Below, piece by piece: positions 42,021 through 62,887 of a stretch of DNA of 64,000 nucleotides (positions are counted from its first letter, which is position 1; each line of letters starts with the position of its first letter). Source of the stretch: Candidatus Enterousia sp. (GTDB taxonomy: Bacteria; Pseudomonadota; Alphaproteobacteria; Rs-D84); NCBI GenBank assembly GCA_045606425.1, contig JAZURV010000002.1, forward strand, positions 22,706 to 86,705, read 5' to 3'. Both the position numbers and the translations under genes were made by a program. The notes under the pieces are model-generated. The model did not search any database. It was not told where the DNA came from and saw only the letters and a list, made by a program, of their open reading frames with translations.

Positions 42021-42363
42021 AAAAACAACTTATACAACTGGACTGTATTCTGAATTTGTGGCGCGCATGTATTTGCGTATGCACGGGTATCGCATTTTAA
42101 AAAATCGTTATGTCACTGGAAAACATACTGGGCGCGCAGAAATAGACATTATCGCACAAAAACAAAACACTATCGTTTTTGTAGAAGTAAAATACAGGAA
42201 AGACCTGGCCACGGCATGGGACGCAATAACACCCGCCCAAATGGTGCGTTTGCGCCGTGCCGCAGAAACATTCTTGATAAATAATCATTGGATGGGCGAT
42301 GCCCGTTTTGATGTGATTGCTGTGTGTGGTCACAAAATATATTGGGCGAAAAACGCGATTTAG
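42010..42363 (+). CDS. yraN: YraN family nuclease
   Basis: EIDIIA...IVFVEVKYR, ARFDVIAV. Confidence 0.85.
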   Translation: MLSKKTTYTTGLYSEFVARMYLRMHGYRILKNRYVTGKHTGRAEIDIIAQKQNTIVFVEVKYRKDLATAWDAITPAQMVRLRRAAETFLINNHWMGDARFDVIAVCGHKIYWAKNAI

Positions 42364-42620
42364 TTTTTTATAACCGCGCTTTTAATCATTGTGACATCTT
42401 CTTTTATCCCATCGATTTTCAATTGCAGTTGCCCTATTCCGGATTCCAAAATTGCTGTTCTATTTTCCAACGAAGTCAATCGCTGTTCCATATGTTCAAT
42501 TTCAGACAAAGATGAATCCTGACGCGCAACCCAATAAATCATACCTGCAATAAACGCTATCAGGAACCAACTGTCGCGCAAGATATCCAGCAGATTAAAT
42601 ATGTTTTGTTGTTTTGTCAT
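42360..42620 (-). CDS. Small TM plus coiled-coil protein (phage lysis-type?)
   Basis: One TM followed by heptad repeats; last gene of the phage-like operon. Confidence 0.45.
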   Translation of the reverse strand: MTKQQNIFNLLDILRDSWFLIAFIAGMIYWVARQDSSLSEIEHMEQRLTSLENRTAILESGIGQLQLKIDGIKEDVTMIKSAVIKN

Positions 42621-42652
42621 AATTGTTTTAATAATTTACCATAGTATTTGTA

Positions 42653-42853
42653 TTATGTTGGATTATTACCCCTTTTTATAAAATTTTCTATTTGGTGAAA
42701 CAATGCGTTTTGTGCCGCCCACCAACGCAATTCGTTATCGGACACATTTTGTCCGATAACGCGTTCGATGGTCAATGTACGCAAATGATTCAATACCTGT
42801 TTGCCAGATGGCGTATTAAAAACACGCGCATAATGTTTTTCTATTTCGTTCAT
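42653..42853 (-). CDS. Bbp19-like small phage protein
   Basis: YARVFNTPSGKQVLNHLR...LRWWAAQNALFHQI, directly after the portal gene. Confidence 0.65.
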   Translation of the reverse strand: MNEIEKHYARVFNTPSGKQVLNHLRTLTIERVIGQNVSDNELRWWAAQNALFHQIENFIKRGNNPT

Positions 42854-42867
42854 AAATACAACCTTTG

Positions 42868-44091
42868 TTATATTGACATTTCTTCGCGTGCCATTTGGGC
42901 AATTGGTGCAATATATTTCAATTCCGCGTCACTGTGCAGTGATATTTTATCTATTAAACCACGGCGCGACAAAATTTGTAATCCGCGTTCGCACAACGGT
43001 TTAATAAATTCGTTCAACAAACGCCCGTATGTCGCCCCCAGTATTCGAACCATATCAGAATTGCGCGCCAATATTTCTGTTGCGGTCATTTCTTTGTCTG
43101 ATAACAGCCCCAGTCTGTCCGCCAATAATGTGTGACGAATTCTGTCACGCAAATCGCGCAAGACTATTTGTGAAACATCAAAATCAGAACCGCTTTGCAG
43201 CGGTGTCAAACCTGACGAACCGACAGCCTTTGGTATAATTGCGCCAGGTGTCAAATTTATATTCGACAAATTTATAACACCATCATCATCGGCCTGCCAT
43301 ATGCCGCTGACCGCGATAGTTGCGTTTTTCAACACCAATTCGACAACTTTGTTCGCGGTTTTAATATCTGGCAACGCACGCAATACCGGACCGCGCCCGT
43401 ATAATTCGCCACTGACCATGGACCAACGGAATATAATGTATGGGGTCGTTTCAAATGTTCCGCGTGCAACAATGTTATTTTCAAAATCACCACCAACATC
43501 AACCCATGCAGTAAAGTCTTTACCAACCAGTGCCTGAACCAATCTGATTGGTGTTTGTGGGTCAGATTTTACTGTGTCGCGCATATTATTCGGGAACACA
43601 AAATCTGGATAACGTTCCATTAAATCACATGCTGGTAATGATGTAGTATGGAACACCATACCCGGTAATATCGCAATATCTTTCATTGGAATTGCAGTGA
43701 AAGAAAAAGCGGAATCTGAACCAATCGGATTTTCCGCCATAAACAAACAGGCAGTTCCCAGAACGACCAAATCGATATAGCACTGATGCACAGTTGTGTA
43801 AAAATTAGAATCATTCAAATGCGCACGCAACATCAGTGTTGCCGTTTCTGCATCTGGTGACAAATCACTTTCACGAACCAGATTTATCCACAACGATTCT
43901 GGCGGTGTCAATAATGAATACATAGACGCAGCCAAATTATCAACAGCATCAGACGCAGTCGCATCGAACAAAGTCGCAACATCTGTGTCATCTGTTGGTA
44001 TGGTATAGCGCATGGCGTCCCGCCAACGCGGCAACCAGATTTCCCGTTCATTTAATGCTCGTTTATATAATTGCATAAGGTTTTTTTGCAT
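42868..44091 (-). CDS. Portal / head-tail connector (T7/BPP-1 type), compact
   Basis: FDATA..AVDNLAASM, DLVVLGTA, RW....GELYGRGP...ALPDIKTAN, MTATEI. Confidence 0.85.
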   Translation of the reverse strand: MQKNLMQLYKRALNEREIWLPRWRDAMRYTIPTDDTDVATLFDATASDAVDNLAASMYSLLTPPESLWINLVRESDLSPDAETATLMLRAHLNDSNFYTTVHQCYIDLVVLGTACLFMAENPIGSDSAFSFTAIPMKDIAILPGMVFHTTSLPACDLMERYPDFVFPNNMRDTVKSDPQTPIRLVQALVGKDFTAWVDVGGDFENNIVARGTFETTPYIIFRWSMVSGELYGRGPVLRALPDIKTANKVVELVLKNATIAVSGIWQADDDGVINLSNINLTPGAIIPKAVGSSGLTPLQSGSDFDVSQIVLRDLRDRIRHTLLADRLGLLSDKEMTATEILARNSDMVRILGATYGRLLNEFIKPLCERGLQILSRRGLIDKISLHSDAELKYIAPIAQMAREEMSI

Positions 44092-44106
44092 TTTTTATTC
44101 CTTTGT

Positions 44107-44955
44107 TTATATGTTGAATTCAGTATTTGCACGAATAACAGTTTGGTTCTTTCCGAATGCACGCACAGGGTTCGGCATCATAGATATCGCCCCCGCAACC
44201 GCGTCCAGACCGTCATCGTGTTCCCTGGAACCAATCGGCGTCCACGCTAACATTTCAGACAACAACATCGTTTGTTTAACGCGGTCGTGCATGAAAAGGT
44301 GACCTGTGGACAACAATGGTTCCAAAGCATTCAAAATTCTTGTTTCTTTCTTTACATGATTTGAAATCTGCACAATATTTACCTGCATCTGATTTTTTGA
44401 TGCGATATCGCGCATAATTTCTGGCAACGCGTTGCCAATTCCGTTTGTTTCAATACCTATACGTGTTGTATGATGTTTTCGCATAAAATCCAGAACATCT
44501 GCACACTGGTTTGCCAACGGATGAATATCCGAATCATCAACATGCATATACATAATATCGTGAACAAAAACATTTCTGTTTTTATCGTCGCGATATATCA
44601 GGACACAAACACTGCCGTCATGATTATTGCGTCCTGTCGATGGGTCCCAATACAGTGCAGTTCCTGTGATATTATGTTCACCTATTTTCGCGGTATAAAT
44701 ATCAAAGTCATTTGAATAGAAATGCACTGCCCCTGGGTCCAATTGAACGCGTTCCATGGCGACATATTCCAACATCATTTGTGCAGAAAAATGTCGTGGG
44801 CCAACAATGTCTGCCAATTCGTGTATTTTTTCGATTGGGAACATATCGGGCCACGCCGGATTTCCAGCACTGTCCACGATGGGAATTTTCAATTGTCTGT
44901 ATCCCCGTAAAAAAGGTATTGAATTCTGAAAATTTTCGTTTAATCTTATGGACAT
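44107..44955 (-). CDS. Terminase large subunit, C-terminal nuclease half
   Basis: WPDMF...FSAQMML, YWDPS, IETNGIG, KETRI...LEP, HDDGLDAVA. ATG at 44955 with GGAG RBS inside dnaB. Confidence 0.8.
   Translation of the reverse strand: MSIRLNENFQNSIPFLRGYRQLKIPIVDSAGNPAWPDMFPIEKIHELADIVGPRHFSAQMMLEYVAMERVQLDPGAVHFYSNDFDIYTAKIGEHNITGTALYWDPSTGRNNHDGSVCVLIYRDDKNRNVFVHDIMYMHVDDSDIHPLANQCADVLDFMRKHHTTRIGIETNGIGNALPEIMRDIASKNQMQVNIVQISNHVKKETRILNALEPLLSTGHLFMHDRVKQTMLLSEMLAWTPIGSREHDDGLDAVAGAISMMPNPVRAFGKNQTVIRANTEFNI
44919..44946 (+). promoter_or_regulatory. Putative sigma70 promoter for leaderless dnaB, located inside terL-C
   Basis: TTGAAT-16bp-TAATCT; ATG at 44954 falls at the expected +1. Confidence 0.4.
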
Positions 44956-46501
44956 GGACTTCACTCCGAAAACTTTACCTACTAATTTAGAAGCCGAACA
45001 GGCCGTATTGGCGGCGGTACTGATGAACAACCGCGCATTGGAATCTGTGTCAGATTTCTTGATGCCAGAACACTTTTTCCACCCAGCGCACCAGGAAATA
45101 TATCGCCTGGCGATGCGCCAATTTGCCGTTGGTATTCCGTTTGATATAATCACTGCCAAAACATACCTGGAACAACAGGGAACTTTGGAAAGCGTTGGCG
45201 GTGTTGAATACCTGTCTAAATTGGCATCGGCGGGCTCTACGGTGGTAAATGTTGAACATTACGGACACATAGTTTTTGATAATGCGCGTCGCCGTGATTT
45301 GATTCAATTGGGGCAAAGCATTATCGACGATGCCTATACCGAAGATTTGGACAAAAGTGTGAACACCCAAATCGAATCGGCAGAACAAAAGTTATTTAAT
45401 CTGGCGTCCACAGGTCAAACAGAACACAGCGTTGTATCGTTGGCGGACGCGTTGAAAAGCGCACTGAAAGAAGCCGAAATCGCGTACAAAGCCGACGGCA
45501 AATTGTCTGGTCTGACCACAGGGTTGGACGATTTGGATAAATCTATCAGTGGTCTGCATCATTCTGATTTAATTATTATCGCCGGTCGTCCAGGTATGGG
45601 TAAAACAACACTGGCGATGAATATTGCTTTTAATGCAGCGAACGCGATATTAAATGGTCGTGCGAACACCCAATACAGGGGCGCGGTTGCATTCTTCAGT
45701 TTGGAAATGTCGTTTTCCCAATTGGCGGCGCGCGTGTTATCATCACAATCAAAGATACCTGCATCACACATGCGTGACGGTAATCTTAGCGACGAAGATT
45801 TTACAAAAATGACCCAATACAGCGAAGCCCTGTCAAAGGTTCCTGTGGTCATAGACGATACCGCAAACATGTCGGTTGCAGGAATCAAAACGCGCGCACG
45901 CCGTATTGCGCGTCAGTTTAATGGTCTGTCGCTGATTGTTATCGACTATTTACAGTTGATGACATCACCAGGTGGCAAACACAGCGACAATCGTGTTCAG
46001 GAATTGTCTGAAATCACCCGCGGTCTGAAAATCCTGGCCAAAGAAATGGATGTGCCTGTTATCGCCCTGTCCCAGTTGTCCCGCAGCGTCGAACAACGCG
46101 ACGATAAACGCCCTGTTCTGTCAGATTTGCGTGAATCCGGTTCTATTGAACAAGATGCGGATATCGTTATGTTTACATACCGCGAAGAATATTACCTGGA
46201 AGGTCGTTCCCCAGATAAAAAATTATCCGGAACTGCGTCCGAACAATCCATGCAGAATTGGCAAAAGCGTTTAGACAGCGTCCGCAACAAGGCAGATGTT
46301 ATCATCGCAAAAAACCGTCATGGTAAACCAGAAACAGTACATTTAAGTTTCATCGGCGAATACTATCTGTTTGATAACCTGAACCAGTTTGGACCACAGC
46401 AGAATTCTGACACAGGATTTGAAGTGCAATATGCTGCCCCGGCAGATTCAAATGTACAAACCGTTGCCGATGCAAATGATATTCCTGACGATTTCATTTA
46501 A
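44948..46501 (+). CDS. dnaB: Replicative DNA helicase DnaB
   Basis: EAEQAVL, AGRPGMGKT, FSLEMS, VIDYLQL, LSQLSR, DLRESGSIEQDAD, KNRHG. Confidence 0.95.
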   Translation: MDMDFTPKTLPTNLEAEQAVLAAVLMNNRALESVSDFLMPEHFFHPAHQEIYRLAMRQFAVGIPFDIITAKTYLEQQGTLESVGGVEYLSKLASAGSTVVNVEHYGHIVFDNARRRDLIQLGQSIIDDAYTEDLDKSVNTQIESAEQKLFNLASTGQTEHSVVSLADALKSALKEAEIAYKADGKLSGLTTGLDDLDKSISGLHHSDLIIIAGRPGMGKTTLAMNIAFNAANAILNGRANTQYRGAVAFFSLEMSFSQLAARVLSSQSKIPASHMRDGNLSDEDFTKMTQYSEALSKVPVVIDDTANMSVAGIKTRARRIARQFNGLSLIVIDYLQLMTSPGGKHSDNRVQELSEITRGLKILAKEMDVPVIALSQLSRSVEQRDDKRPVLSDLRESGSIEQDADIVMFTYREEYYLEGRSPDKKLSGTASEQSMQNWQKRLDSVRNKADVIIAKNRHGKPETVHLSFIGEYYLFDNLNQFGPQQNSDTGFEVQYAAPADSNVQTVADANDIPDDFI

Positions 46502-46567
46502 TTTTTATCTTGCCAAGGTCTTAAAAATTGACTAACATTTTGTCAACATATACAAAAAGGGCAAACC

Positions 46568-47575
46568 ATGGCACAAGAAGAAATCATTTTCCCAAATAAC
46601 ATTCGCAACATCCGCGCATCGCGTGGTATGAAGATGACTGAATTGGCGCGTCGTTCCAATTTATCACTGTCCGCAGTATCAAAAATTGAAAAAGGCGTCC
46701 GTCGTCTGAATCAGAAACAATTGCTGAATGTGTGCAATATATTGGGTTGTAAATTGTCCGATATATTTATTCACGAATCTGATTCTGTGGCACAAAATTG
46801 GCAAAATGAAATCAGACGCCGCCTGGTTGATAACGAAGACAGCGGATTGAAAATATTTGGTTCTGGCCTGCGTAAAATTCGCCAACGCAGCGAAAAAACT
46901 ATCGCCCAGGCTGCCAAGGCTGCGAATATGACACTGTCTGTGTATCATAAAATTGAGGTCGGTCAACGCGAAGTCTATGAAAACGAAATCGATGTACTGG
47001 CCCAGGCGTTTGGATACAAAGCGTCCGAATTATTCGATGAAATCGCAAAATTATACAAATCTGGCGAACTGACAAAACAAATCGACAAAGTCAAAGAACG
47101 CGTTAAATCTGTTTTGGAACCGGTCAACCCAGTGTCCGGATTGGATATTCACGGCGGACTTTATGGCGCACAGTTATACGATAACGCACGCAAAAAATTG
47201 GTTCCTGTTTTCGGTAAACCATCTGGCAAATCCATTCAGTTGAAAAAGTCTGATGAAACGATGATTGTTGCACCAACTGAATTAGAAGGCCACAATGGAA
47301 TCTATGCCGTCGTACCAAATTCGAAACGCCTGGGTGGATTTATCCCAGAATCTGCATATGTTTTTGTAGATGCAAATTCGACCCCGTCTGTCGGCGATTT
47401 GGCGGTAAGTATGGACGCTGATTTTGCGAAATTATCATCTGACGATGTTGCAAATGCCCAAATCGTCGTGGTCAAGAAAGATTCCCACGGCAAAATTTTT
47501 GGTCATGTATCTGGCCCAGAAGAAAAAGTTTACGGCAAAACTTTGCACAAAGTTGTTATGATTGTAATGCAATAA
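46568..47575 (+). CDS. Double-HTH XRE family regulator
   Basis: Two HTH_XRE domains (IRNIRASRGMKMTELARR...; LRKIRQRSEKTIAQAAK...) plus a beta-rich C-terminal domain. Confidence 0.8.
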   Translation: MAQEEIIFPNNIRNIRASRGMKMTELARRSNLSLSAVSKIEKGVRRLNQKQLLNVCNILGCKLSDIFIHESDSVAQNWQNEIRRRLVDNEDSGLKIFGSGLRKIRQRSEKTIAQAAKAANMTLSVYHKIEVGQREVYENEIDVLAQAFGYKASELFDEIAKLYKSGELTKQIDKVKERVKSVLEPVNPVSGLDIHGGLYGAQLYDNARKKLVPVFGKPSGKSIQLKKSDETMIVAPTELEGHNGIYAVVPNSKRLGGFIPESAYVFVDANSTPSVGDLAVSMDADFAKLSSDDVANAQIVVVKKDSHGKIFGHVSGPEEKVYGKTLHKVVMIVMQ

Positions 47576-47599
47576 CCTGTATAACCCAAGGAGAGAGAT

Positions 47600-48241
47600 A
47601 TGCAACAACAGGCACACACAATCGCCCAACGTTTGTTAAATCTTTATCGCCAGGCCCATGTCATAGATGGCGGTTGGGCTGCGGTGAACCAGGTTTTTAT
47701 TTCTGAATCAAATGACAATCAGGTTATTTCTGAATTGGAAACAATGCCAACTGGGAAAAAACTGATTGCACATATAAACAACCTGCGCGCAGGAAAAACA
47801 CCGATGGATTCTATCGACAAAGATTTATTGCCGTATGGTGGGCTGATGACTGGGCAACAAACAACTGTTTCTTTGTCTGATGATGAAATCAAACAATTAA
47901 AACAAATTCTGAATACATTCCAACCAAATCCAGAAAGTTTGGAAATCGTAAAGAATTTACCGTTTGTTCAAAAATTCGGTAATGATTGGGTTCAAGATGT
48001 AAAATCAGCAATCGCATTTGATAATGATTTATCCAACAAATGGCAAATTGTCGCGCAAACCGACCATGCCTATCGCACATGGGACAGCGCAAAACAATTA
48101 CTGTCTGAAACACTGACAGAACGCAATCGCGCCCAAATTCAGGCTGACATGCCAGAATTCGAAACATATCTGCCCATGTTCGGCGATGCCGGGAATGAAA
48201 TGTTGGCTAAATTGCGTACATTTATGTCGTCGTTGTCGTAA
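47600..48241 (+). CDS. Hypothetical protein
   Basis: 213-aa ORF with GGAG RBS. Confidence 0.65.
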   Translation: MQQQAHTIAQRLLNLYRQAHVIDGGWAAVNQVFISESNDNQVISELETMPTGKKLIAHINNLRAGKTPMDSIDKDLLPYGGLMTGQQTTVSLSDDEIKQLKQILNTFQPNPESLEIVKNLPFVQKFGNDWVQDVKSAIAFDNDLSNKWQIVAQTDHAYRTWDSAKQLLSETLTERNRAQIQADMPEFETYLPMFGDAGNEMLAKLRTFMSSLS

Positions 48242-48243
48242 AT

Positions 48244-48861
48244 TCATTCTGTTTTATAGATTGTATCATGCGTGTGCGGTGTACCGATATAAATCATCGT
48301 TCCGTTTGGCGATAAAATAAAATCCAGTTCACGCAATCTTTCACGCAGATTTTCCCTTTTCTGTTGCGTATTGCATGTATTTGGCACTTCTACATCGTCA
48401 CAGATAATCAAATCAGAACGCATTCCTGTTATGTTGCCTGCGATTCCTTGGCAAATAACAGATGGTTCGCGAATTCCGATTGGACGTTTTATAGTTATCT
48501 TGTGCGTGCCCCATTCTTTTTTTACATCAGGAACAATTCCATCGCACCACGGATGATTTTCAATAATGTTTTTTATATGCGCAACCATACGCGATGCCAA
48601 TCCAGATTCTGCGGACAATATCAAAATCCTGGTTTCTGGTTTGTGATATAAAACACACGCCGCAAACACACCGACAACTGTTGATTTTCCGGAATGCCTG
48701 AAAGCGTTTAATAATCCACGATGTGGTTTATTGTTAAATACATCGACCAAGAAACCTATTATTTTTTTATGATGTTCTGGCGTTTGCAATCCCAAAACTT
48801 TGTTCCACGCGTCCAGAAAATCAAATGCTTCCGTAATCGTCATTGTTATCGCCACTGGCAT
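48244..48861 (-). CDS. Terminase large subunit, N-terminal ATPase half
   Basis: AFRHSGKST (Walker A), ITGMRSDLIICDDVE (Walker B), YIGTPH coupling motif, then a stop codon. Confidence 0.85.
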   Translation of the reverse strand: MPVAITMTITEAFDFLDAWNKVLGLQTPEHHKKIIGFLVDVFNNKPHRGLLNAFRHSGKSTVVGVFAACVLYHKPETRILILSAESGLASRMVAHIKNIIENHPWCDGIVPDVKKEWGTHKITIKRPIGIREPSVICQGIAGNITGMRSDLIICDDVEVPNTCNTQQKRENLRERLRELDFILSPNGTMIYIGTPHTHDTIYKTE

Positions 48862-49369
48862 GTTCCGTCACAGACCCATAATCGTTTATCAGTTTTGGCA
48901 AAGCATCTTCCAATACCGATACCAAATTATAATACAGCCCCAAAACCGCACCGCCAGACATTTTATCTTCGATTGTCGCCATCACATAGTCTAATTTTTT
49001 CATTACTGTGTCATGAATATTTGCCCATTGTGATAAATCGATATTTATAGTTTGAATATCTTGTAATGCAGCAACGATAAAATCGAAATCAGAATTCAAA
49101 TCTTCTGGGTCTATTTTTTCCGTTGGCTGATAATCTATCACACGCGACAAATCAACCTGGCGAAAGATATCTATCTGTGTACCTGTTTCGGGTGCAACGG
49201 GGAACACAACCACGCCACCGCTGAAATCATCATTTGGATTTACATCATATTGTGTGTTATCCAAAACAGAATCGTTGATTGCGACCTTTATATCTGCATC
49301 TTGAAAGAATGGGAACACAAATGAAAATTCGGTATTTTCACCGTCCCCAACATAAGAGATTTTATACAT
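48821..49369 (-). CDS. Tail fibre protein, T7 gp17 N-terminal-like domain
   Basis: SYVGDGENTEFSFVFPFF..DIKV...IFR...DLNSDFD. Confidence 0.7.
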   Translation of the reverse strand: MYKISYVGDGENTEFSFVFPFFQDADIKVAINDSVLDNTQYDVNPNDDFSGGVVVFPVAPETGTQIDIFRQVDLSRVIDYQPTEKIDPEDLNSDFDFIVAALQDIQTINIDLSQWANIHDTVMKKLDYVMATIEDKMSGGAVLGLYYNLVSVLEDALPKLINDYGSVTEHASGDNNDDYGSI

Positions 49370-49378
49370 TTTGTCCCC

Positions 49379-49726
49379 CTATCCTGCGATTTTGTCGATA
49401 TTGCTTAACCAGTTTTTAATGATGTTAGGTTTTTTTACTTTCAGTTTTTTTATTTTATCGATATTTTCCTGACGCTTGGTTTCGTATGGTTCTGCGGTTT
49501 CATCGCGCAAACGTTTCAGCACCGCTTTTTCGGACAAACCGTTTCCGCCATTTCCACTGGCACCGTATTTAGCGCGTTGATTTGCCAATGCTTTTTTTAT
49601 TAAATTTGTTTTTGTCGCTTCGTCTGACGCCATTTGTGCCAGTATTTTCTGACGTTGATTTTCTGCTTCCTTTTTTGAATCTTTATAATCTAAAACTTTT
49701 GTCACATCTGATACCAGTTGTCCCAT
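49379..49726 (-). CDS. Putative internal virion protein
   Basis: Helical, with QRAKYGASG motif; located after tail tube B. Confidence 0.45.
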   Translation of the reverse strand: MGQLVSDVTKVLDYKDSKKEAENQRQKILAQMASDEATKTNLIKKALANQRAKYGASGNGGNGLSEKAVLKRLRDETAEPYETKRQENIDKIKKLKVKKPNIIKNWLSNIDKIAG

Positions 49727-49744
49727 TTGTTTCCTCCTGTTTTT

Positions 49745-51457
49745 TTATACTAAATACCAACCATCAACTGTCACAGACAATATGGTTGCGTTTAATTGTT
49801 CGTTGCTGGACAATGTCCACAACGGTTTCATTGTGTCGATTTGACCGCCCAACAAATTCAATGATAAATCACCGCTGTATCCAGGATTGTCTGCATCGTA
49901 AACACAATTTGGAATTTCTATGCGTTGATTATTTACAAACACAGTCTTTGTATCCAAAACGCGCAGCGATATTTTACGCGCCCGAATTTTCTTTGGGCTG
50001 TGATTATTCACTATCATTGGGAACGCAGATATTTTATAAGAAAAATTATAATTCGTGGCATCAGTCAAAGACGCTTCATCAAATTTTTCCAAATAAAAAT
50101 TATTATCGCGTTCAACAACAACATATGTTGCATTATTAAACACGCTTACATACTTGAATTTACCGTTTGTTGTATATCTTCCCCACGCATTTATATCTGT
50201 GTTCGGATGTTTATTCAACACAGCCATATACCCGTCATTCATCACAATGAAAAGGCGATGTGTCGCCTGATTGAATGCGATGCTGATTGGTTCTTGCATC
50301 AAATGTTTAGACAACGAACATAAATCGTTGGCATTGTAATGCTGACTTAAATCATCTAAATCCAGTTCGCGCACATCTTTGCCGGACTGCGAAATAAATA
50401 CAGTGGAACCTTCTATTTGTTGTGGTGGCAACCAGCGATTTGTTATAGAACCAACCGATGTATGCTGTTTAATATCTATATTTGCCGGCGTCAATGGGGC
50501 ATTCGAAATCGCCCATTCGCCCACAGATGTCAATATTTGCAAATTATCACTGCTGACTATTGTTGAAATCTGGTGATGTTGCGACGATAACAGGGCAGTA
50601 AAAATCGCATCATCATCTAAACCGTTGCCTGCATCAAAGTTATTGTAATCACCGACTTTCGACATCCACAAATTATTTGGTGCCGATTTTGTGCCACCGA
50701 AAACCAATCTGTTTTGATGGAACGAAACGGCGCGCGGCCAACCGCGTTTGTCACTGAATGCGGCAACATACCAATCATAGATAGCAGTACCAGGGAAAGA
50801 AAAATCTCCGTTTGTAAAAACAGTCGCGACACGCGCATTTTGCACAGATTGAACAATCCATTGTTTATTGTTGACCAACAACCTTTGCCAAACCCAATCA
50901 TCGGTCCATATATCTTTGTTGGTGGTAAATGTTGCATGGTTATTGTCGATTGTACTGCTGGAAATCGTTATAGCAACTCCGTCCATATCGTCGAATCGCA
51001 TAAACGGAATGTTTATTGACAAATCCGAATTGACATGGAAATAAAACTGTTTGATACTGAAACCAGATGCGTCTTTGGTAAATACCATTGGACTGAATTC
51101 TGGGTGCGCGAAAAAGATTGAATTAAATCTTTGTGCGTATTGTATTTGTTTTAAATCTATATTTTCCCACGGCGTGGTCACACTTTCAATTTGCACATCG
51201 TTTTCATACACATCTATTTTTTGGTTGTAAATAACCAATAAATATTTTTCCGATTCGCTTATCTGAAAAGGCACCAAAATCGCATTGTCTGGAATTTGCG
51301 CGATACTTTGCAGTCCTGCTCTGCGCTTTAATGCACCAGATTGCAAAACATCCATATTTTCCAGATGTGCCAACCCATTATTATTATTTATGGCATAAAA
51401 TTCTGGTGAAATTTCACCAAATGAAAATATATTTTGTGTTTTAAGAAAATTTCCCAT
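49745..51457 (-). CDS. Tail tubular protein B (gp12-like nozzle)
   Basis: FSFGEISP...NMDVLQSGALKRRAG, GWPRAVSFHQNRLVFGG, WMSKVGDYNNF. Confidence 0.75.
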   Translation of the reverse strand: MGNFLKTQNIFSFGEISPEFYAINNNNGLAHLENMDVLQSGALKRRAGLQSIAQIPDNAILVPFQISESEKYLLVIYNQKIDVYENDVQIESVTTPWENIDLKQIQYAQRFNSIFFAHPEFSPMVFTKDASGFSIKQFYFHVNSDLSINIPFMRFDDMDGVAITISSSTIDNNHATFTTNKDIWTDDWVWQRLLVNNKQWIVQSVQNARVATVFTNGDFSFPGTAIYDWYVAAFSDKRGWPRAVSFHQNRLVFGGTKSAPNNLWMSKVGDYNNFDAGNGLDDDAIFTALLSSQHHQISTIVSSDNLQILTSVGEWAISNAPLTPANIDIKQHTSVGSITNRWLPPQQIEGSTVFISQSGKDVRELDLDDLSQHYNANDLCSLSKHLMQEPISIAFNQATHRLFIVMNDGYMAVLNKHPNTDINAWGRYTTNGKFKYVSVFNNATYVVVERDNNFYLEKFDEASLTDATNYNFSYKISAFPMIVNNHSPKKIRARKISLRVLDTKTVFVNNQRIEIPNCVYDADNPGYSGDLSLNLLGGQIDTMKPLWTLSSNEQLNATILSVTVDGWYLV

Positions 51458-51475
51458 ATCTAAACTCCTTTATTG

Positions 51476-51994
51476 TTAAAACCTGGAATCTATCAAAGAA
51501 AAATTTCCGATATTTGGTTGATTTGAAGTTGTACTGTCTATAAATTTTGCAGATTGAAATTCTGATTCGTATAATGCCGTCATCATTCGAAATACAGACG
51601 CATCACCAATCAAGGGTATACAAAATTCTACTGCTAATTTGGTTGCCAATAATGTGGCAAAATAGCCAGGAAACGCATCTGGTTCTGTTTTTACAACCGC
51701 CAATATAGTTATTGTGTTTTCTGTGGATTTGATTTTATTCCCGATAATTTGCCCGTTGCATTTCAATATTCTTAAAACTTCGGTTGGTATTAAAAAATCA
51801 TCATCAGATGTTTTGTTTAAAACCAAAGTTTTGGTCGCAAAACGCCACGGGAAAGTTGATAATAATGTATCCAAAGTTGGTTCAAACAATGTTCGTGCCA
51901 ATTGCGCGCTGGCAGAATCTTCGCGCCACGATTGAATTGGTTTTTCGCCTAACTTTAACAATGCCATTGAACATATATCTATTTTTGTAAACAT
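51476..51994 (-). CDS. Tail tubular protein A (gp11-like adaptor)
   Basis: IDICSMALLKLGEKPIQS...PWRFA. Confidence 0.75.
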   Translation of the reverse strand: MFTKIDICSMALLKLGEKPIQSWREDSASAQLARTLFEPTLDTLLSTFPWRFATKTLVLNKTSDDDFLIPTEVLRILKCNGQIIGNKIKSTENTITILAVVKTEPDAFPGYFATLLATKLAVEFCIPLIGDASVFRMMTALYESEFQSAKFIDSTTSNQPNIGNFSLIDSRF

Positions 51995-52063
51995 ATTCGC
52001 ACCTTGTATTAAAAAATTGGGGGATAAAACATTCCCCCAATTTACAGTTCAAAGAAAAAATTA

Positions 52064-52294
52064 TTAAGATAAAGCACCGACTGTCACAACGCCTTCGGCA
52101 ACAGTGACAACCTTTATCGACGAACCGTTTGATCCGTTGATTAAAATGATGTCGCCTGTATTCATCAGATTTTTCAGGCTGGAAAAATATCCAGATGCTG
52201 TTATTGTTGCCAATGTCGCGTTTTCTTTATAGTGCCACAGTGTAAAGCCGTTTGCGTATGCAATTACAGATAAATTTTTATTTTGAAAAGCCAT
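52064..52294 (-). CDS. Small virion protein (capsid decoration?)
   Basis: LSVIAYANGFTLWHY...YF...GDIILIN; follows the capsid gene. Confidence 0.55.
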   Translation of the reverse strand: MAFQNKNLSVIAYANGFTLWHYKENATLATITASGYFSSLKNLMNTGDIILINGSNGSSIKVVTVAEGVVTVGALS

Positions 52295-52317
52295 TTTGTC
52301 TTCCTTTTTGTTATAAA

Positions 52318-53142
52318 TTATTCTGCATCGTCATCGCATTTGATACGAACGATACCTTCGCCGTCAATCAAAACTGCGCCCTGGGACATGCTGTTGCTGA
52401 TAAAGTGGGCTGCGCGTTCGCCGTGCCATGTGATATCTGTTTTGACTTCCTGACCACATGCGTGACCAATACTGGATGCATGATAGATAAAGCAATCACG
52501 GTCATCACTGCTAAGTGGCAAAGAATTACACAAAATCCAATTCACACCCAACCATTTACGCGATTCGCAACCATCAACCAATGGTGTTGCAGAACCAACA
52601 TAATCGGCAGAAACAAATTCATCCATTCCCAACAATTCGTTCCATTGGTGTACACCAACAACCGCAAATCTGCGACCATCATCTGGCACATCGTTCGCGT
52701 TCAATTTTTCCAACGCAGCCATAATCAAATCTTTGGTCAAACCAGTAGAATAATCGCCAACATATTGTGTCGCGCTGGTCATCGCGTTGATAATCAGTTC
52801 ATCTGTTTTGCGACCCAACGCATATGCACCGGCAGACGCAACCACACGACGTTCATCAACATTTGTTTTTAATTCATCCAACGAATCAACCCAATCACCG
52901 GCATAGTAATCTTGCAATACACATTCAACCGGGGTGTGATTCAAATTCATCACAGGAACAATCCCATGACGCGATTTTGTGCTGGCGATACCTTTGCCAA
53001 CTTTCTGGAAAGTAGTAGATGCCCCAACAACCCCAGATTTACTGCGAATTGTGGAACGTAATTTTGTGCCCATTTGCTGATAAGCCAAATGAACATCTGC
53101 TTCAAATTGTTTTACAAACACTTGATCTACAGACATAGACAT
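52318..53142 (-). CDS. Major capsid protein (podovirus type)
   Basis: FVKQFEADVHLAYQQMGTKLR, AYALGRKTDELII, DVPDDGRRF. Confidence 0.85.
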   Translation of the reverse strand: MSMSVDQVFVKQFEADVHLAYQQMGTKLRSTIRSKSGVVGASTTFQKVGKGIASTKSRHGIVPVMNLNHTPVECVLQDYYAGDWVDSLDELKTNVDERRVVASAGAYALGRKTDELIINAMTSATQYVGDYSTGLTKDLIMAALEKLNANDVPDDGRRFAVVGVHQWNELLGMDEFVSADYVGSATPLVDGCESRKWLGVNWILCNSLPLSSDDRDCFIYHASSIGHACGQEVKTDITWHGERAAHFISNSMSQGAVLIDGEGIVRIKCDDDAE

Positions 53143-53376
53143 AATAAATCCTTTTTGTTTAAATTAAATGACGCTTTCGCGCTATTTGAAAAAAATTTTG
53201 TTAGATGGTTATGCGAAATATTCGCGCCATAAAAACAAAAACACACAAAAAAGGGTCCAATAAATGGATTATCCAATAAAAAATTCAGTCAGACTTTTAT
53301 TCATCTGGCTGAAAAATTTATCATAAAAAAATCCCCAAAACAAGCGCCTTGGGGATTTTTAAAAACTTTGCAAAAA

Positions 53377-53634
53377 TTATTTTTTCTTAACTACTTTTTT
53401 AGCAGCTGGTTTTTTTGCAGGTGCTTTTTTTGCAACTGGTTTTTTAGCAGCTGGTTTTTTTGCAACTACTTTTTTTGCAACTGGTTTTTTAACTGCAACT
53501 TTTTTTGCAGGTGCTTTTTTTGCAGCTGGTTTTGCAGCTGGTTTTTTTGCTGCTACTTTTTTTGCAGGTGCTTTTTTTGCAGCTGGTTTAGCAGCTGGTT
53601 TTGCGCATGCACATTTTTTCTTTAAACCGAACAT
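53377..53634 (-). CDS. Histone H1-like Lys/Ala/Pro-rich basic protein
   Basis: AKKPA/AKKVA/AKKAP pentapeptide repeats; AGGAG RBS; hairpin at 53325-53360. Confidence 0.75.
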   Translation of the reverse strand: MFGLKKKCACAKPAAKPAAKKAPAKKVAAKKPAAKPAAKKAPAKKVAVKKPVAKKVVAKKPAAKKPVAKKAPAKKPAAKKVVKKK

Positions 53635-53731
53635 GTTTCTCTCCTTATTAAAGTTTTGGACAGAACAAAATTATTTTGTTCTTGTTTTATATTTTATATG
53701 AATTGAAATAAATAGTAAAGAACAAAATGAT

Positions 53732-54388
53732 TTATGAATACAATTTTTTAAAACCATTTTCAATTTTACGAACATATTCAGGATCATGATCACGCCAATA
53801 TTTTGGATCACGCATCATATTACGCAACATATCATCAGATAAATTTTCTGTGACATTTTTATCGGTTAAAACATTCGGTTCCAGTGATTGCATCATCTTG
53901 TACATGCCTTGAATTCCCTGGGGTGTGGCACACAGTTCTTCGAATGCAGATTGTGGTAAATACTTTTCACCAAACGCATTTATTTCGCGTAATGCTTCGT
54001 TCATTTTTTCTGTGGAACCAAAAAAATTTTTTAATTCATTTATTGCGTTTGATTGGTTTTGTAATTCAAATAAATTTTTTAATGTTGGTTGTAAAAATTC
54101 TTCTGCGATGGAATAAATTTGTTCAACCTGTTTTGATGTTAAACCAATTTCATGAAATTTATTGCGGACCGATTCGTCATCAAACAAATCATTTGTTGGA
54201 TATTCAGATGCACTGTCAGGTACACCTATGGCGTGATTAAATTTTTGTTTTGTATTTTCGTCACTTTCATCATTTGGCACTGATATCATATTGCCCATCT
54301 TTTTTTCCAGTTCACAATATGACTTTACCAATGCAGATGTATTTAATTCGCCGTTTTCATCAAGAAATTTTTCTGGAACTTTTTCCAT
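53732..54388 (-). CDS. Capsid scaffolding protein
   Basis: VPEKF...LVKSYCELEKKMG...MMRDPKYW...VRKI; upstream of the capsid gene. Confidence 0.7.
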   Translation of the reverse strand: MEKVPEKFLDENGELNTSALVKSYCELEKKMGNMISVPNDESDENTKQKFNHAIGVPDSASEYPTNDLFDDESVRNKFHEIGLTSKQVEQIYSIAEEFLQPTLKNLFELQNQSNAINELKNFFGSTEKMNEALREINAFGEKYLPQSAFEELCATPQGIQGMYKMMQSLEPNVLTDKNVTENLSDDMLRNMMRDPKYWRDHDPEYVRKIENGFKKLYS

Positions 54389-54578
54389 TGTTTTTTCCTT
54401 TGGTTGTTGATTCTTGTTTAAGAAAGTAAATACCTGATAAAGTGAATATTGTTTGCATCATGGTAAATATATCTTCGTCCCCAATAAGATATGCACCAAT
54501 TGCAGACACAATACCAACAGTGGACACGACATATGTTTTTTTATCTTGTAAATATCCACCTTTTATTATTTTATTCAT
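54360..54578 (-). CDS. Holin-like small membrane protein
   Basis: KKTYVV plus 2 TMs and a basic C-terminus; follows the cell-wall hydrolase. Confidence 0.5.
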   Translation of the reverse strand: MNKIIKGGYLQDKKTYVVSTVGIVSAIGAYLIGDEDIFTMMQTIFTLSGIYFLKQESTTKGKNNGKSSRKIS

Positions 54579-54594
54579 TATGAAAATCCTTTAG

Positions 54595-55005
54595 TTAAAG
54601 ATAGAACAAAATATCTTCGCATTCTGAAATATATCCACGCGACATCGCCCAATCTGGGATAACATTCGCGTGATGAAATTTTGTAGCCCCAAAAACAGAA
54701 TCATCCAAATTACCGCGCATCATGGTTTTTACGATTCGCAAACACATCTGAAATTTTTTATTGTTCGCGTCCACTTTCAGATTTTGATGACGCGGCGATT
54801 CTTTATTTAAACATTCAAATAAATTCACATCGTTTGAAATCGATTCAAATGATTTACCCAATTTGATGTGAATATTATAAATCATGGACGCCATCGCTTC
54901 GACCAGTTTTAAAGTTTCCGCATTTGTTTCTGCAAATATTATACGCGCCAATTTATATGATACGATTTGTGTATCATCGTTATTAGTTATCAGTGTTAGT
55001 TGCAT
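54595..55005 (-). CDS. Cell wall hydrolase (SleB/Hydrolase_2-like)
   Basis: LARIIFAE, FECLN, GATKFH...PDWA...FY. Confidence 0.7.
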   Translation of the reverse strand: MQLTLITNNDDTQIVSYKLARIIFAETNAETLKLVEAMASMIYNIHIKLGKSFESISNDVNLFECLNKESPRHQNLKVDANNKKFQMCLRIVKTMMRGNLDDSVFGATKFHHANVIPDWAMSRGYISECEDILFYL

Positions 55006-55156
55006 TTTGTGACCTGTTTTTTTGTTATAAAAAAAAGCCCACACATAAAATGTGTGGGTAAAAATTCAGAATAAAAAAACCGCACTTACTGCGGACATAA
55101 TTTCTATTCTTGATGTTCCATATAATATCACAAATTGACATAAAAGTCAAGCACAT

Positions 55157-55843
55157 TTAGATACTGATTTCGTCACCGTATGTTAAAATATATCGCGTAT
55201 CGCGACGCAGTACCAATGCACCATCTTCGTTTATCCCCAGTAATTCAGCGGGTTTGCCCTGGTATTTAACTGTTTTATTTATACACATCGCCAATTCCAT
55301 CCAGCGTTCACGAACTGCTGAAAAATCAGCATTACGCCATTTATCCAATTTTTTTATCAACACAGACAGGATTTGTTCAACACCCGCATCTGCATAATCA
55401 CAGACCCTGGTTGTTTTGTATTCTTTGACCGTCGGACAGGTTTTTACATTTATCCCAATTCCAATAATGACAAAGTTACGCGCATATTCAATTAAAACAC
55501 CAGATATCTTTTTATTGTCCACCAAAATATCATTGGGCCATTTTATCCGGGGATTTAAACCGAATGAAATCAAAGTTTCTGCAATCGCCACAGCCACAGC
55601 ATATGAAAGTCGCGGATTGCGTTCCAATGTTTTATAAATAAATGACGCATACAAATTTCCATGATGCGAAACCCATGTTCGACGATAACGGCCACGCCCT
55701 GCACTTTGCGCCATCGCAACAACCAATGTTTTGTTTGTTGCATTTCCATTTGCGATTAAATCGTGCGCATAATCTTGGGTAGATGGGATTTTATCAAAAG
55801 ACATCAGTTTATATGCGTCCAATCCTGTATCCCCCGTTTTCAT
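55157..55843 (-). CDS. birA: Biotin-protein ligase
   Basis: STQD, QSAGRGR, KWPND, KISGVLIE, GIGIN. Confidence 0.9.
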   Translation of the reverse strand: MKTGDTGLDAYKLMSFDKIPSTQDYAHDLIANGNATNKTLVVAMAQSAGRGRYRRTWVSHHGNLYASFIYKTLERNPRLSYAVAVAIAETLISFGLNPRIKWPNDILVDNKKISGVLIEYARNFVIIGIGINVKTCPTVKEYKTTRVCDYADAGVEQILSVLIKKLDKWRNADFSAVRERWMELAMCINKTVKYQGKPAELLGINEDGALVLRRDTRYILTYGDEISI

Positions 55844-56228
55844 TCAAAATAAAATTATGACCGAAAGTTTTTCGCAACTGATAGATAGCGTTTTCAACAC
55901 TGTGTGTTGTTGCATCTGGCGACAAACCAACGGCTGTTTTCAGATTGTGAATTTGTATATTTGGTTTTTTATAAAGCGCGACTATAATTTTTCTTTGCAA
56001 CAGTGGCAAATTCACATCACGACCAAAAATGTTTTGCAAAATATCGCTGTTATTGTATTGGTCCAAAATCAGTTGTTGCAAATCAGCAACCGATATGGGT
56101 GCATCTGGAGATATTTCGTCAAAAACAATATCTGCATTTTCTGGCGAATCGACCATACTGGCACCCAAATCTGTCAAAATGCGATTCCAGTATTTATCAG
56201 ATGCAAAAATCTTTATGTTTTCCATCAT
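55809..56228 (-). CDS. OmpR-type winged-helix protein with degenerate receiver domain
   Basis: THSVENAIYQLRK...GGYRI. Confidence 0.6.
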   Translation of the reverse strand: MMENIKIFASDKYWNRILTDLGASMVDSPENADIVFDEISPDAPISVADLQQLILDQYNNSDILQNIFGRDVNLPLLQRKIIVALYKKPNIQIHNLKTAVGLSPDATTHSVENAIYQLRKTFGHNFILNENGGYRIGRI

Positions 56229-56273
56229 GATGATACGATACCGAAATCCGTTGCCCCTTGCAAGATTTTATTA

Positions 56274-56519
56274 TCACAAAGTATGCGGTTCGTTTGACGG
56301 GATAAACTTTGTAAAATCTTCCAAGGACGCGCCTGTTGACGCTAATATTTTTGAAATACTGTTTGTTGATGGCCATCTGGGCTGGCCCTCTTTTGACCAT
56401 CTTTTGCTTCTGTTAAAGGTCGTCGGGTCCAGCCCGCTGCATTTTGCCAGGCCAGAACACGACATATTGTGTTCTGTTGCGAATTTTTCTATTGCGCGCC
56501 ATACATCTTCGTGTGTCAT
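56274..56519 (-). CDS. Alphaproteobacterial XRE/LexA-like repressor, HTH domain only
   Basis: HEDVWRAIE...SGLAKCSGLDPTTFNRSKR...PRWPSTNSISKIL; no S24 domain. Confidence 0.75.
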   Translation of the reverse strand: MTHEDVWRAIEKFATEHNMSCSGLAKCSGLDPTTFNRSKRWSKEGQPRWPSTNSISKILASTGASLEDFTKFIPSNEPHTL

Positions 56520-61097: not shown

Positions 61098-61129
61098 AAA
61101 AAACGCCGCCGAATGGCGGTGTTTTTTTT
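61098..61129. terminator. Bidirectional intrinsic terminator ending the RT gene
   Basis: AAAAAACGCCGCC-GAAT-GGCGGTGTTTTTTT. Confidence 0.8.
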
Positions 61130-62147: not shown

Positions 62148-62160
62148 CAGTTTACAGTTT

Positions 62161-62472
62161 TCAAGCATTCAAATAATCAAACATATCGTCCCATTTTGGG
62201 TTTACGGATTCAATCAATTCTATTTTTCTTTTACGCGCCCATGATTTGATTTGCTTTTCACGCAATATCGCGTATTCTGGATTTTCGAAAATTTCCATAT
62301 ACACCAATTTATTTACATTATAGCGCGCGGTAAAACTGTCTTTGTTCATGTGGGTTTTATGTTCCACAGAACGGCGTGCAATATCGTTTGTAACACCGGT
62401 ATAAATCGTGCCATTTTTTCCAGATGCCATTATATAAACATAGTATTTATAAGGTTCATGGTAATATTTCAT
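62161..62472 (-). CDS. GIY-YIG nuclease
   Basis: YYVYIMASGKNGTIYTGVTNDIARR..EH...AILREKQIKSW.RK.KIELI...NPKW. Confidence 0.9.
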   Translation of the reverse strand: MKYYHEPYKYYVYIMASGKNGTIYTGVTNDIARRSVEHKTHMNKDSFTARYNVNKLVYMEIFENPEYAILREKQIKSWARKRKIELIESVNPKWDDMFDYLNA

Positions 62473-62520
62473 AAATGCAATGATAATGTTTGTTGGCAAA
62501 TAAGCAAGAATAAAAGCACA

Positions 62521-62730: not shown

Positions 62731-62748
62731 CAGCGGCGTCTGGTGGTC

Positions 62749-62882: not shown

Positions 62883-62887
62883 TGACA

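Follow-up and report, generated by a model that had tools for sequence, protein, structure and literature searches.

The 64,000-nt stretch of DNA analysed here (contig JAZURV010000002.1, positions 22,706 to 86,705; hereafter the window) comes from Candidatus Enterousia, an alphaproteobacterium of the order Rs-D84 with a very small genome of 0.93 Mb (assembly 933 kb). At positions 42360-56519 it carries a cluster of podovirus-type head, tail and packaging genes, the domestication of which is well supported. In our judgement the cluster is probably a domesticated, vertically inherited podovirus remnant which most likely still makes DNA-filled, short-tailed particles resembling gene transfer agents (GTAs), that is, a viriform; packaging and transfer of host DNA are suggested by the gene content. 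Features of GTAs and viriforms found here are the residence of virion and packaging genes without a replication or integration module of their own, vertical inheritance together with purifying selection, and the dispersal of the loci and their mixing with host genes (dnaB or ftsZ inside the cluster, genes for Mtd_N-domain proteins and one small gene elsewhere). The dispersed loci would be needed for particle production.

Genomes of the order Rs-D84 are smaller than about 1 Mb and have many biosynthetic gaps, and a lifestyle as symbionts or parasites has been proposed for these bacteria (PMC12306168); phage, capsid, terminase, gene transfer and FtsZ are not mentioned in that paper. Loci near-identical to the one described here were found in database records from animal rumen and gut. 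Genes were identified by open reading frame (ORF) calls and by Pfam and PHROGs profiles, and coordinates are those of the window unless a contig or locus is named. G000 denotes the source genome (95% complete) and G002 its nearest species, while L-numbers denote loci from relatives.

The head-tail-packaging set, of T7/BPP-1/HTVC010P type, is located on the minus strand at 42360-55044. Its virion module consists of a PF12236 portal, a T7-type scaffold, a PF19821 capsid, an adaptor and a nozzle, a T7-fibre N-domain and a T7-type large terminase (TerL) encoded by two genes, TerL-N and TerL-C. A plus-strand insert between the terminase halves comprises dnaB, a gene for a protein with two helix-turn-helix (HTH) domains and a gene for a 213-aa protein. 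The dnaB gene in the cluster gave the sole DnaB_C match of a genome-wide profile search in the 933-kb assembly. On one side the cluster is flanked by UPF0102/yraN (41935-42363) and on the other by genes for a birA-like ligase (PF03099), a 139-aa protein and an 81-aa HTH protein; the placement between yraN and birA and the interleaving with dnaB, both part of the original prediction, are thus borne out. The same holds for the predicted lack of integrase, attachment sites, polymerase and primase: none of these genes was annotated at 42360-56519 with Pfam and PHROGs, and no attachment-type direct repeats were found around the cluster in a repeat scan. The nearest tyrosine recombinase gene (8959-10152) is 32 kb off, with ackA, recG, frr, uppS, cdsA, rseP and bamA in between. 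In GC content (0.35-0.44) the cluster does not stand out from its surroundings, and its cost amounts to about 1.4% of the 0.93-Mb genome.

All head, tail, packaging and lysis genes listed in the original prediction were recovered at their positions by the ORF, Pfam and PHROGs analyses, and most of their labels could be kept. In the direction of the structural genes, all on the minus strand, the T7 capsid-assembly-type scaffolding protein (53732-54388; PF05396, 38.5 bits) is followed by the major capsid protein of 274 aa (52318-53142; PF19821, E 2e-72), with ratios of non-synonymous to synonymous substitution (dN/dS) of 0.075 and 0.042, respectively. The next gene (52064-52294) encodes a conserved 76-aa protein, which is 97% identical to its G002 orthologue (dN/dS 0.015) and also follows the capsid gene in phage EXVC031P; the label 'decoration' given to it is weakly founded, its match being to phrog_18004, a family with no known function (E 2e-13). 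Downstream are the tail adaptor of tubular protein A type (51476-51994; phrog_394, E 4e-33), of which the positional counterpart in Vibrio phage 22O28-1 is annotated as 'head completion adaptor', and the 570-aa tail nozzle of tubular protein B type (49745-51457; phrog_376, E 6e-89; dN/dS 0.076). The subsequent 115-aa protein (49379-49726; dN/dS 0.072) is weakly related to internal virion proteins of the T7 gp14 type. Its earlier naming as an internal protein is weakly founded, on 35% identity between a genus orthologue (L018) and a protein of L114 that matches T7_gp14 below the cut-off. The 182-aa fibre protein (48821-49369; phrog_1640, E 9e-18; PF03906 below cut-off) consists of the N-terminal tail-attachment domain only. 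Beyond TerL-N, the insert and TerL-C come the 407-aa portal (42868-44091; PF12236, E 2e-80; dN/dS 0.045) and a Bbp19-like small protein (42653-42853; PF25181, 30 bits), whose gene also lies downstream of the portal gene in EXVC031P and follows it, according to tblastn, in 5 of 20 loci from families outside Rs-D84. The predicted compact sizes of portal and capsid were correct, their interpretation as a trait of domestication was not: compactness is a trait of the phage lineage, the capsid of EXVC031P also being 274 aa long. The portal proteins of homologous elements elsewhere have 488-595 aa, as compared to 407 aa here.

Conservation, selection and co-divergence with the host

The capsid gene was found in 53 of 61 relatives. 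A capsid profile search of the order, restricted to genomes at least 85% complete, gave matches in 235 of 251 genomes (209 of the 222 of high quality), in 23 of 24 genera and in 193 of 199 genomes of the own genus. The gene is single-copy in nearly all genomes of the order and, among the matches listed, all but a few are free of stop codons and none has more than one. All eight genus loci are collinear with the window, including dnaB and the genes for the HTH and 213-aa proteins between the TerL halves; this applies to all genes apart from that of the fibre N-domain, which was not found in four of the eight. The 12 loci from five other families of Rs-D84 all retain the scaffold, the capsid, the two tail proteins and TerL-N, and 11 of them the portal, in rearranged orders. 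The original prediction had proposed synteny among related genomes as a check and strain-specificity or pseudogenisation in relatives as grounds for rejection; the former was found and neither of the latter holds.

In order to assess selection, the second check proposed, dN/dS was calculated against G002 by the NG86 method in one pairwise comparison, from which the trmA row was dropped due to a misaligned high-scoring segment pair with a stop. The values were 0.015-0.125 for 15 phage-derived genes and 0.038-0.196 for neighbouring host genes, which corresponds to purifying selection of equal strength, and no stop codon was present in any of the phage-derived orthologues compared. The synonymous divergence (dS) was between 0.66 and 2.6, with the lowest values in the capsid, post-capsid and scaffold genes.

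The cluster diverges together with its hosts, as had been asked with the third check, a comparison of capsid and portal with the species tree. Within the genus, capsid identities to G000 are 80-95% and those of DnaB 67-92%; in the other families they are 66-76% and 44-55%, respectively. Over 51 genomes, which are kin and therefore not independent, capsid and DnaB identities to G000 correlate with a Spearman coefficient of 0.80. When six structural proteins of 21 genomes were concatenated, the resulting tree had 11 of 18 splits in common with the DnaB tree. These shared splits comprise the genus, its inner pairs and the clade of family f3, the one multi-genus family clade which DnaB itself recovers. 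Additionally, two genomes of family f2 are united in the structural tree, which is not the case in the DnaB tree.

A large terminase encoded in two genes

TerL is distributed over two genes with the same break point in 21 of 21 Rs-D84 genomes, whereas it is a single ORF in all 18 loci from families outside the order in which TerL is present. In the window, TerL-N is the ATPase half of 205 aa (48244-48861, minus strand), which aligns to positions 275-459 of phrog_38 (dN/dS 0.030), and TerL-C (44107-44955, minus strand; PF22530; phrog_38 positions 468-716; dN/dS 0.125) comprises the rest of the ATPase domain and the RNaseH-like nuclease. The ORF of the latter extends over 44107-45159. Its first 68 codons gave no match and are antisense to the start of dnaB, and the start of TerL-C is likely to be Met69 at 44955. 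Apart from the window, TerL-N forms its own open frame of 200-227 aa in 20 of 20 loci of the order, and TerL-C forms a separate open frame in all 18 order loci in which it is inside the fetched range. In alignments to intact TerL proteins of 487-495 aa, TerL-N stops after the GTPH..IYxTE segment (about position 197) and TerL-C picks up at the conserved residues that come next. The Walker A, Walker B and GTPH motifs are intact in 21 of 21 TerL-N proteins, and the three acidic nuclease motifs (D/E/D) are intact in every TerL-C inside the fetched range. Since the division was found in all Rs-D84 loci examined, it is older than the radiation of the order.

The surroundings of the break differ between families. 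TerL-N and TerL-C are adjacent in families f2, f4 and f5, they are separated by the portal gene and ftsZ in f3 and by dnaB in the genus Enterousia. Contigs from four other samples span both junctions around the insert. Among the contigs of four DNA sequencing runs, in which rare variants are dropped, none joins the TerL halves (about 44950 to about 48244); five rearrangement joints were seen in these contigs, all of them short-sided and away from the TerL gap. An intron or ribozyme in the gap was rejected, as Rfam searches of the window and of four order loci at the gathering threshold gave only tRNAs. A split intein was ruled out, because the halves end and begin exactly at homologous positions of the intact TerL and thus leave no room for intein parts. 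Both products are still under selection, and according to the simplest reading they would form a two-chain enzyme. No described precedent appeared among the papers listed in a literature search on two-gene terminases.

The insert itself is located on the plus strand. It consists of the gene for the host replicative helicase DnaB (44948-46501; PF03796 and PF00772), the gene for a 335-aa protein with two HTH_3 domains (46568-47575; PF01381), which is 72-88% identical within the genus, and the gene for the 213-aa protein (47600-48241), which is present in 8 of 8 genus loci and was not found in the other families.

A further host gene was observed within the cluster elsewhere in the order. In 8 of 12 loci from the other Rs-D84 families ftsZ adjoins the portal gene inside the cluster (e.g. 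L022:14841-16595, L027:2643-4163, L032:5270-6853). PF00091 (FtsZ/tubulin) was matched in none of 37 genomes of the Enterousia genus, as compared to 22 of the 24 from the other families, and tblastn with two FtsZ proteins of the order gave no match in the 95% complete genome G000. The genus may divide without FtsZ.

Related chromosomal elements, phages and known gene transfer agents

Homologous elements were found well beyond the order. The capsid profile matched 90 of 401 alphaproteobacterial genomes at E <= 1e-10, and about 60 of 397 genomes outside Rs-D84 at E <= 1e-100, usually with one copy, in many families and in genomes of up to 6.6 Mb. In 20 loci from these families a typical (canonical) gene order was observed, which starts with a divergent S24 LexA/CI-like repressor, two conserved small genes, portal, Bbp19, scaffold and capsid and continues with a small gene, adaptor, nozzle, a gp14-like gene, fibre, lysis genes in some loci, a gene for a protein of about 96 aa, TerL and hydrolase. 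In L114 the lysis genes encode DUF6127, lysozyme and GTA_holin_3TM. The elements have a size of 13-14 kb. In 8 of the 20 loci pyrD follows the element (L114, L116, L119-L122, L126 and L130 are among the carriers) and lysS is a flank in two. L126 holds the whole element in 13.4 kb between pyrD and lysS, with integrase and replication genes absent, and no integrase, excisionase or replication genes were present in any annotated copy. The distribution of the capsid gene was followed in one family with genomes of 3-8.5 Mb, where it occurs in 42 of 61 genomes; presence is all-or-none by genus, with counts of 9/9, 8/8, 7/8, 5/8, 0/9 and 0/2. In a smaller family a strong capsid match was obtained in 4 of 6 genomes.

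The capsid protein matches 127 of 50,697 phage records. The best cultured-phage match is that of Pelagibacter phage EXVC031P (42.7%), followed by HTVC010P and Vibrio podophages with about 32%, and the capsid encoded on a 5-kb scaffold from human faeces (unverified), which has the canonical gene order, is 63.7% identical. No phage TerL is more than 28% identical to the intact TerL proteins of the homologous elements, and T7-like proteins are the best matches. In the capsid tree the branches of phages have lengths of 1.3-8 substitutions per site and those of chromosomal copies 0.01-1.1. The Rs-D84 copies form a single clade with a support of 93, which lies within a starred clade together with three other families and the faecal scaffold. 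As they nest in a tight clade of chromosomal elements, the Enterousia cluster is a derived member of that group and not a private domestication. Of the independent domestication proposed in the original prediction, the domestication therefore stands, and its restriction to this lineage does not.

Moreover, IMG/VR contains at least 552 stretches with this capsid. Most of them are fragments of 10-14 kb which start at the capsid gene, suggesting automated provirus calls, and one (L203) includes trmA, birA and dnaB. The database lists hundreds of these chromosomal loci as viral genomes (L156-L235), which virome studies may count as phages.

GTAs are known from a handful of independent domestications, and the formally classified alphaproteobacterial families are those of RcGTA and BaGTA. 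The resemblance to RcGTA (Rhodogtaviriformidae) lies in a phage-derived chromosomal cluster without replication and integration genes, in vertical inheritance, in purifying selection and in accessory loci. According to one study, head-only clusters of the RcGTA type persist in Rickettsiales and Holosporaceae endosymbionts with strongly reduced genomes (PMC9254644). The predicted distinction from the RcGTA type was confirmed: RcGTA is siphovirus-like, with an HK97-type PF05065 capsid and a prohead protease, whereas the Enterousia cluster has a PF19821 capsid, a podovirus module and a T7-type TerL in two genes, and PF05065 gave no match in G000, in contrast to a Caulobacter control genome.

BaGTA of Bartonella (Bartogtaviriformidae) is likewise alphaproteobacterial, of independent origin, associated with host-dwelling bacteria with small genomes and encoded by a main cluster of about 14 kb. 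In its published description, TerL (1344 nt) is directly upstream of the portal gene (1863 nt), and a 1119-nt 'phage related protein' gene is located further on (PMC3610622); judged by its size and place, the latter is taken to be the capsid gene. The canonical element, by contrast, begins its structural genes with the portal gene and has TerL last, and its capsid gene has 825 nt. The viriform paper groups the BaGTA TerL with Sulfitobacter phages pCB2047-C and NYA-2014a. No Sulfitobacter phage was among the 25 best phage TerL matches of the element, the best of which is T7-like with 28% identity. Assignment to the BaGTA type was rejected on the published gene order and TerL neighbours, not by direct protein alignment.

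The third known system considered, FpGTA of Faecalibacterium prausnitzii, is likewise found in a gut bacterium; it is a GTA-like element with two loci and a presumed podovirus-like nature, and has been called the first podovirus-like GTA-like element. Its host is a Gram-positive Firmicute and packaging of host DNA has been measured, whereas the Enterousia element is known from its genes alone and is set beside FpGTA by description.

Among phages, EXVC031P shares the Bbp19-like protein, portal, scaffold, 274-aa capsid, small post-capsid gene, tail proteins, hydrolase and a GTA_holin_3TM-type holin, and BPP-1 is the namesake of the Bbp19 and Mtd_N domains. The phage genomes have 34-35 kb, as opposed to a chromosomal virion and lysis module of 13-14 kb, their capsid identities are 32-43%, and the 23.7 of 34.2 kb of EXVC031P that were fetched gave no match to the TerL of the element. 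Capsid-forming satellites such as cf-PICI as a rule possess integrase and replication genes, lack tail genes and need a helper phage. Like cf-PICI, the Enterousia element is small and chromosomal and encodes a capsid, a portal and a terminase of its own; it differs from these satellites by the presence of tail genes and the absence of integrase and replication genes. No description of a podovirus-type GTA in Alphaproteobacteria, of phage elements in Enterousia/Rs-D84 or of DUF6127 appeared among the papers listed in literature searches.

Possible function, rival explanations and further observations

Two candidate regulators are encoded at the head of the cluster. The 81-aa HTH protein (56274-56519, minus strand; Pfam HTH_26) is 86-91% identical within the genus, and it shares 45-61% identity with the S24 repressors of L114 and L126 over about their first 80 residues. 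It lacks the S24 peptidase domain and corresponds to the N-terminal HTH of a LexA/CI-like repressor. It is a candidate regulator of the cluster, and a paralogue is present at G000:C1:9637-9876. The 139-aa protein (55809-56228, minus strand) keeps its position in 8 of 8 genus loci and is a candidate activator. Its C-terminus resembles by eye an OmpR-type winged helix; this assignment is an inference, because the protein has no Pfam match above chance. In family f3 a 168-aa Trans_reg_C protein heads the cluster (L022:2880-3386). Between the regulators and the structural genes lies the gene for a host biotin/lipoate-protein ligase (birA-like; 55157-55843, minus strand; PF03099, E 2e-19). In a consensus scan, a promoter-like site at 55150-55122 on the minus strand was found to be followed by two terminator-like hairpins at 55094-55080 and 55058-55038. 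Over the whole scan, promoter-like sites are no commoner than in shuffled sequences (54 vs 48.9), while terminator-like sites are (25 vs 14.0, sd 3.9). By consensus match, this arrangement, located directly before the hydrolase gene where the structural genes begin, could serve antitermination control.

The endolysin-like cell-wall hydrolase (54595-55044, minus strand; phrog_938 endolysin, E 6e-8) matches PF07486 below the cut-off; its L114 orthologue passes it. Several orthologues align only from residue 14, and the true start is probably Met14. The holin-like label of the original prediction is weak, as it relates to single predicted membrane helices in a 72-aa and an 86-aa protein. The former (54360-54578, minus strand), a holin candidate by hydropathy, is present in all eight genus loci and in 8 of the 12 loci from other Rs-D84 families. 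The latter (42360-42620, minus strand), for which hydropathy and sequence indicate an N-terminal membrane helix and a coiled coil, is a spanin- or holin-like lysis candidate and is 61-81% identical in 8 of 8 genus loci. As a candidate for the small terminase subunit (TerS) the 86-aa protein was rejected, since no profile relation to the putative TerS family or to DUF6127 was detected. Between scaffold and capsid an 85-aa Lys/Ala/Pro-rich, histone-H1-like repeat protein is encoded (53377-53634, minus strand; HC2 below cut-off) with 13 copies of a 15-nt unit. Such an ORF of 85-160 aa, with a varying number of repeats, is the longest open frame between the two genes in 7 of 9 genus loci, and other families have a multi-pass membrane protein of about 200 aa in its place. 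As a guess, the histone-H1-like protein may bind DNA inside the head.

Some parts are located outside the cluster. A 193-aa protein with an Mtd_N domain (24823-25404, plus strand; PF18454, E 2e-12; phrog_9648 tail protein) is a candidate receptor-binding tail protein. Mtd_N proteins are present in 37 of 61 relatives with one to three copies, the second copy of G000 being on contig 8, and in several genus members the gene is no more than a few kb away from the cluster. The first approximately 50 residues are conserved and the remainder is variable, with identities of 38-71% within the genus, and these proteins are candidate receptor-binding tail proteins encoded away from the cluster. Furthermore, one of the two small genes conserved in the canonical element has a homologue at G000:C11:56928-57266 (counterpart L146:7914-8267), which encodes 117 aa with the motif AWFWF..RPCE and is relocated between yidC and secretion genes of virB8/virB9/virB10 type. 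The predicted fold of its product is a confident four-helix bundle (pLDDT 85). As a candidate for TerS this protein gained no backing: searches of PDB sequences (best E 0.16) and of known folds (best Foldseek E 2) gave no match, and the protein atlas yielded nothing beyond clusters without names and leads at chance level. The genome also contains comEC, dprA and recA.

Taken together, these genes suggest the following course of events. The truncated CI/LexA-like HTH protein and the putative winged-helix protein would switch the genes on in a fraction of cells, and scaffold, capsid and portal would assemble into procapsids. The two-chain terminase (TerL-N and TerL-C) would dock on the portal, cut the DNA and pump it in. 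As the element can neither excise nor replicate, only the chromosome in place would be available as packaging substrate, and the particles should carry host DNA. Adaptor, nozzle, gp14-like protein and the variable Mtd_N receptor-binding proteins would complete the tail. Lysis by the hydrolase and the small membrane proteins would set the particles free, and recipients would take up the DNA and recombine it with the help of ComEC, DprA and RecA.

Several observations weigh against a vertically inherited, DNA-transferring particle. Regarding inheritance, 7 of the 18 DnaB splits were not recovered by the structural proteins, four of them with a support of at least 88, and G001 is discordant, with a capsid that is 92% and a DnaB that is 67% identical. 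The dN/dS values stem from a single pairwise NG86 comparison with dS near saturation (0.66-2.6). The capsid gene was not detected in 16 of the 251 order genomes, some of which are 97-98% complete, and in one genus it was found in 1 of 4; the element is therefore dispensable and can be lost. Regarding the particle, no small terminase was recognised, and no homologue was detected of the putative TerS whose gene precedes TerL in other families. No homologues of the canonical holin, lysozyme and DUF6127 were seen in the neighbourhood of the cluster, and the holin-like candidates, with single predicted membrane helices only, lack support by homology. Of the fibre only the N-domain is left, and 4 of 8 genus loci lack even this. 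Ejection proteins of gp15/gp16 type were not found, which makes DNA delivery uncertain. A head with too little room for the particle's own genes is a classical GTA trait; a capsid shaped as in the phage relatives of 34-35 kb could hold the whole 14-kb cluster. Further loci are located on other contigs. Finally, a 35-kb IMG/VR contig encodes a capsid with 64% identity, an adjoining portal with 34% identity and also a 1036-aa protein. This contig may be a true phage, and related phages or an exchange of capsid genes with phages may exist.

The strongest rival to the GTA-like particle shares the domestication and differs in its use. The particle would serve as a killer in the manner of PBSX, for delivery of DNA or protein to the partner cells on which these metabolically dependent bacteria rely or for regulated lysis, and any DNA packaging would be a by-product. 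The evidence for conservation fits this explanation equally well, and so do the reduced fibre and ejection proteins; multi-copy, fast-evolving Mtd_N proteins (38-71% identity in the genus) would be expected if the target surface varies. Many biosynthetic pathways are missing in the hosts, for which a life as symbionts or parasites of other cells has been proposed (PMC12306168), and the role of RcGTA head genes kept in endosymbionts was questioned in the same way in a study of those genes (PMC9254644). However, strong purifying selection acts on both TerL halves and on the portal, and the ATPase and nuclease motifs are intact, which argues that DNA packaging itself is selected, and comEC, dprA and recA are retained. 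On balance we regard a use other than gene transfer as rather improbable, yet as deserving serious consideration. An unlikely explanation is that of a selfish minimal phage or satellite-like element which packs mainly its own locus and the DNA next to it from a pac site in place, in the manner of lateral transduction, and spreads horizontally between related cells. The canonical form is indeed compact (13-14 kb) and equipped with a CI/LexA-like S24 repressor and lysis genes, it fits a capsid of the size expected from the 34-kb phage relatives, IMG/VR pipelines call it a provirus, and the discordance between capsid and DnaB identities in G001 would be accounted for. Against such an element stand the lack of integrase, excisionase and replication genes in all annotated copies and the state of the Rs-D84 cluster, which is rearranged, broken by dnaB or ftsZ and partly dispersed. 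Its presence is all-or-none by genus and almost always in single copy, and its phylogeny tracks host families, with pyrD and lysS as flanks common across families.

An ordinary defective prophage in decay, or repeated independent insertions, would agree with the phage-type nature of all genes and with the viral labels which automated pipelines assign to such regions. This explanation is highly improbable in view of the capsid gene in 235 of 251 genomes and 23 of 24 genera, the one position, gene order and divided terminase of 8 of 8 genus loci, dN/dS values well below 1 with stop-free orthologues, a tree that tracks the host and a nearest cultured capsid of 43% identity. The dnaB and ftsZ genes embedded in the cluster and the contigs that bridge its junctions likewise speak against contamination of the assemblies by one phage. 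A functional temperate prophage was rejected, as integrase, attachment repeats and a replication module are lacking and the distribution is not patchy.

If the cluster does make GTA-like particles, a further, podovirus-derived GTA has been kept across a whole order of as yet unculturable gut bacteria, and it would offer a possible route of DNA exchange to these reduced, partner-dependent organisms. The chromosomal elements as a whole can be read more boldly, and here we remain tentative, with less than even confidence: they could constitute a third, ancient family of alphaproteobacterial GTAs, derived from podoviruses, vertically inherited in many families with genomes of 0.7-8.5 Mb and probably induced by DNA damage. 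Its Rs-D84 form would have become locked to ftsZ and later to dnaB and have acquired the two-chain terminase. Many Alphaproteobacteria without RcGTA would then own a separate particle for DNA exchange. The cluster also presents a case of essential genes (ftsZ, dnaB) inside a domesticated virus cluster, and a natural, long-conserved two-gene large terminase would be useful for the analysis of communication between ATPase and nuclease in the packaging motor.

Other features of the window were noted in passing. A diversity-generating retroelement (DGR) is present with a reverse transcriptase gene at 61128-62168 beside a GIY-YIG gene (61128-63029 in total). Its template repeat (G000:C2:86684-86818), just beyond the end of the window, is rich in AAC codons, and 87 of 150 mismatches are located at its adenines. 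There are at least six variable repeats, one of them at 62895-63029 and the others on contigs C14, C1, C9 and C13. All variable repeats are in genes other than those of the Mtd_N proteins, and an action of the DGR on the latter was therefore rejected. A DGR-like, adenine-directed origin was also rejected for a repeat of 131 nt in an 859-aa ORF without family match (15218-17797): its copies (15887-16017 and 17120-17250) are 87% identical, the mismatches are not adenine-specific, and a plain internal duplication is indicated. Positions 1-14000 have a low GC content (0.29-0.36) and contain a gene for an 839-aa protein with nine DUF4379 zinc-finger repeats, many family-less ORFs, the tyrosine integrase gene at 8959-10152 and a phage-type lysozyme gene (11888-12553); this segment is possibly a separate island or prophage remnant. 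Inverted paralogues of phrog_9915 are located at 18964-20527 and 31223-33170 (495 and 598 aa), about 11-14 kb apart, with arms that are 74-84% complementary. One of them carries seven tandem repeats of 99 nt (31745-32638), and the segment between the paralogues could invert.

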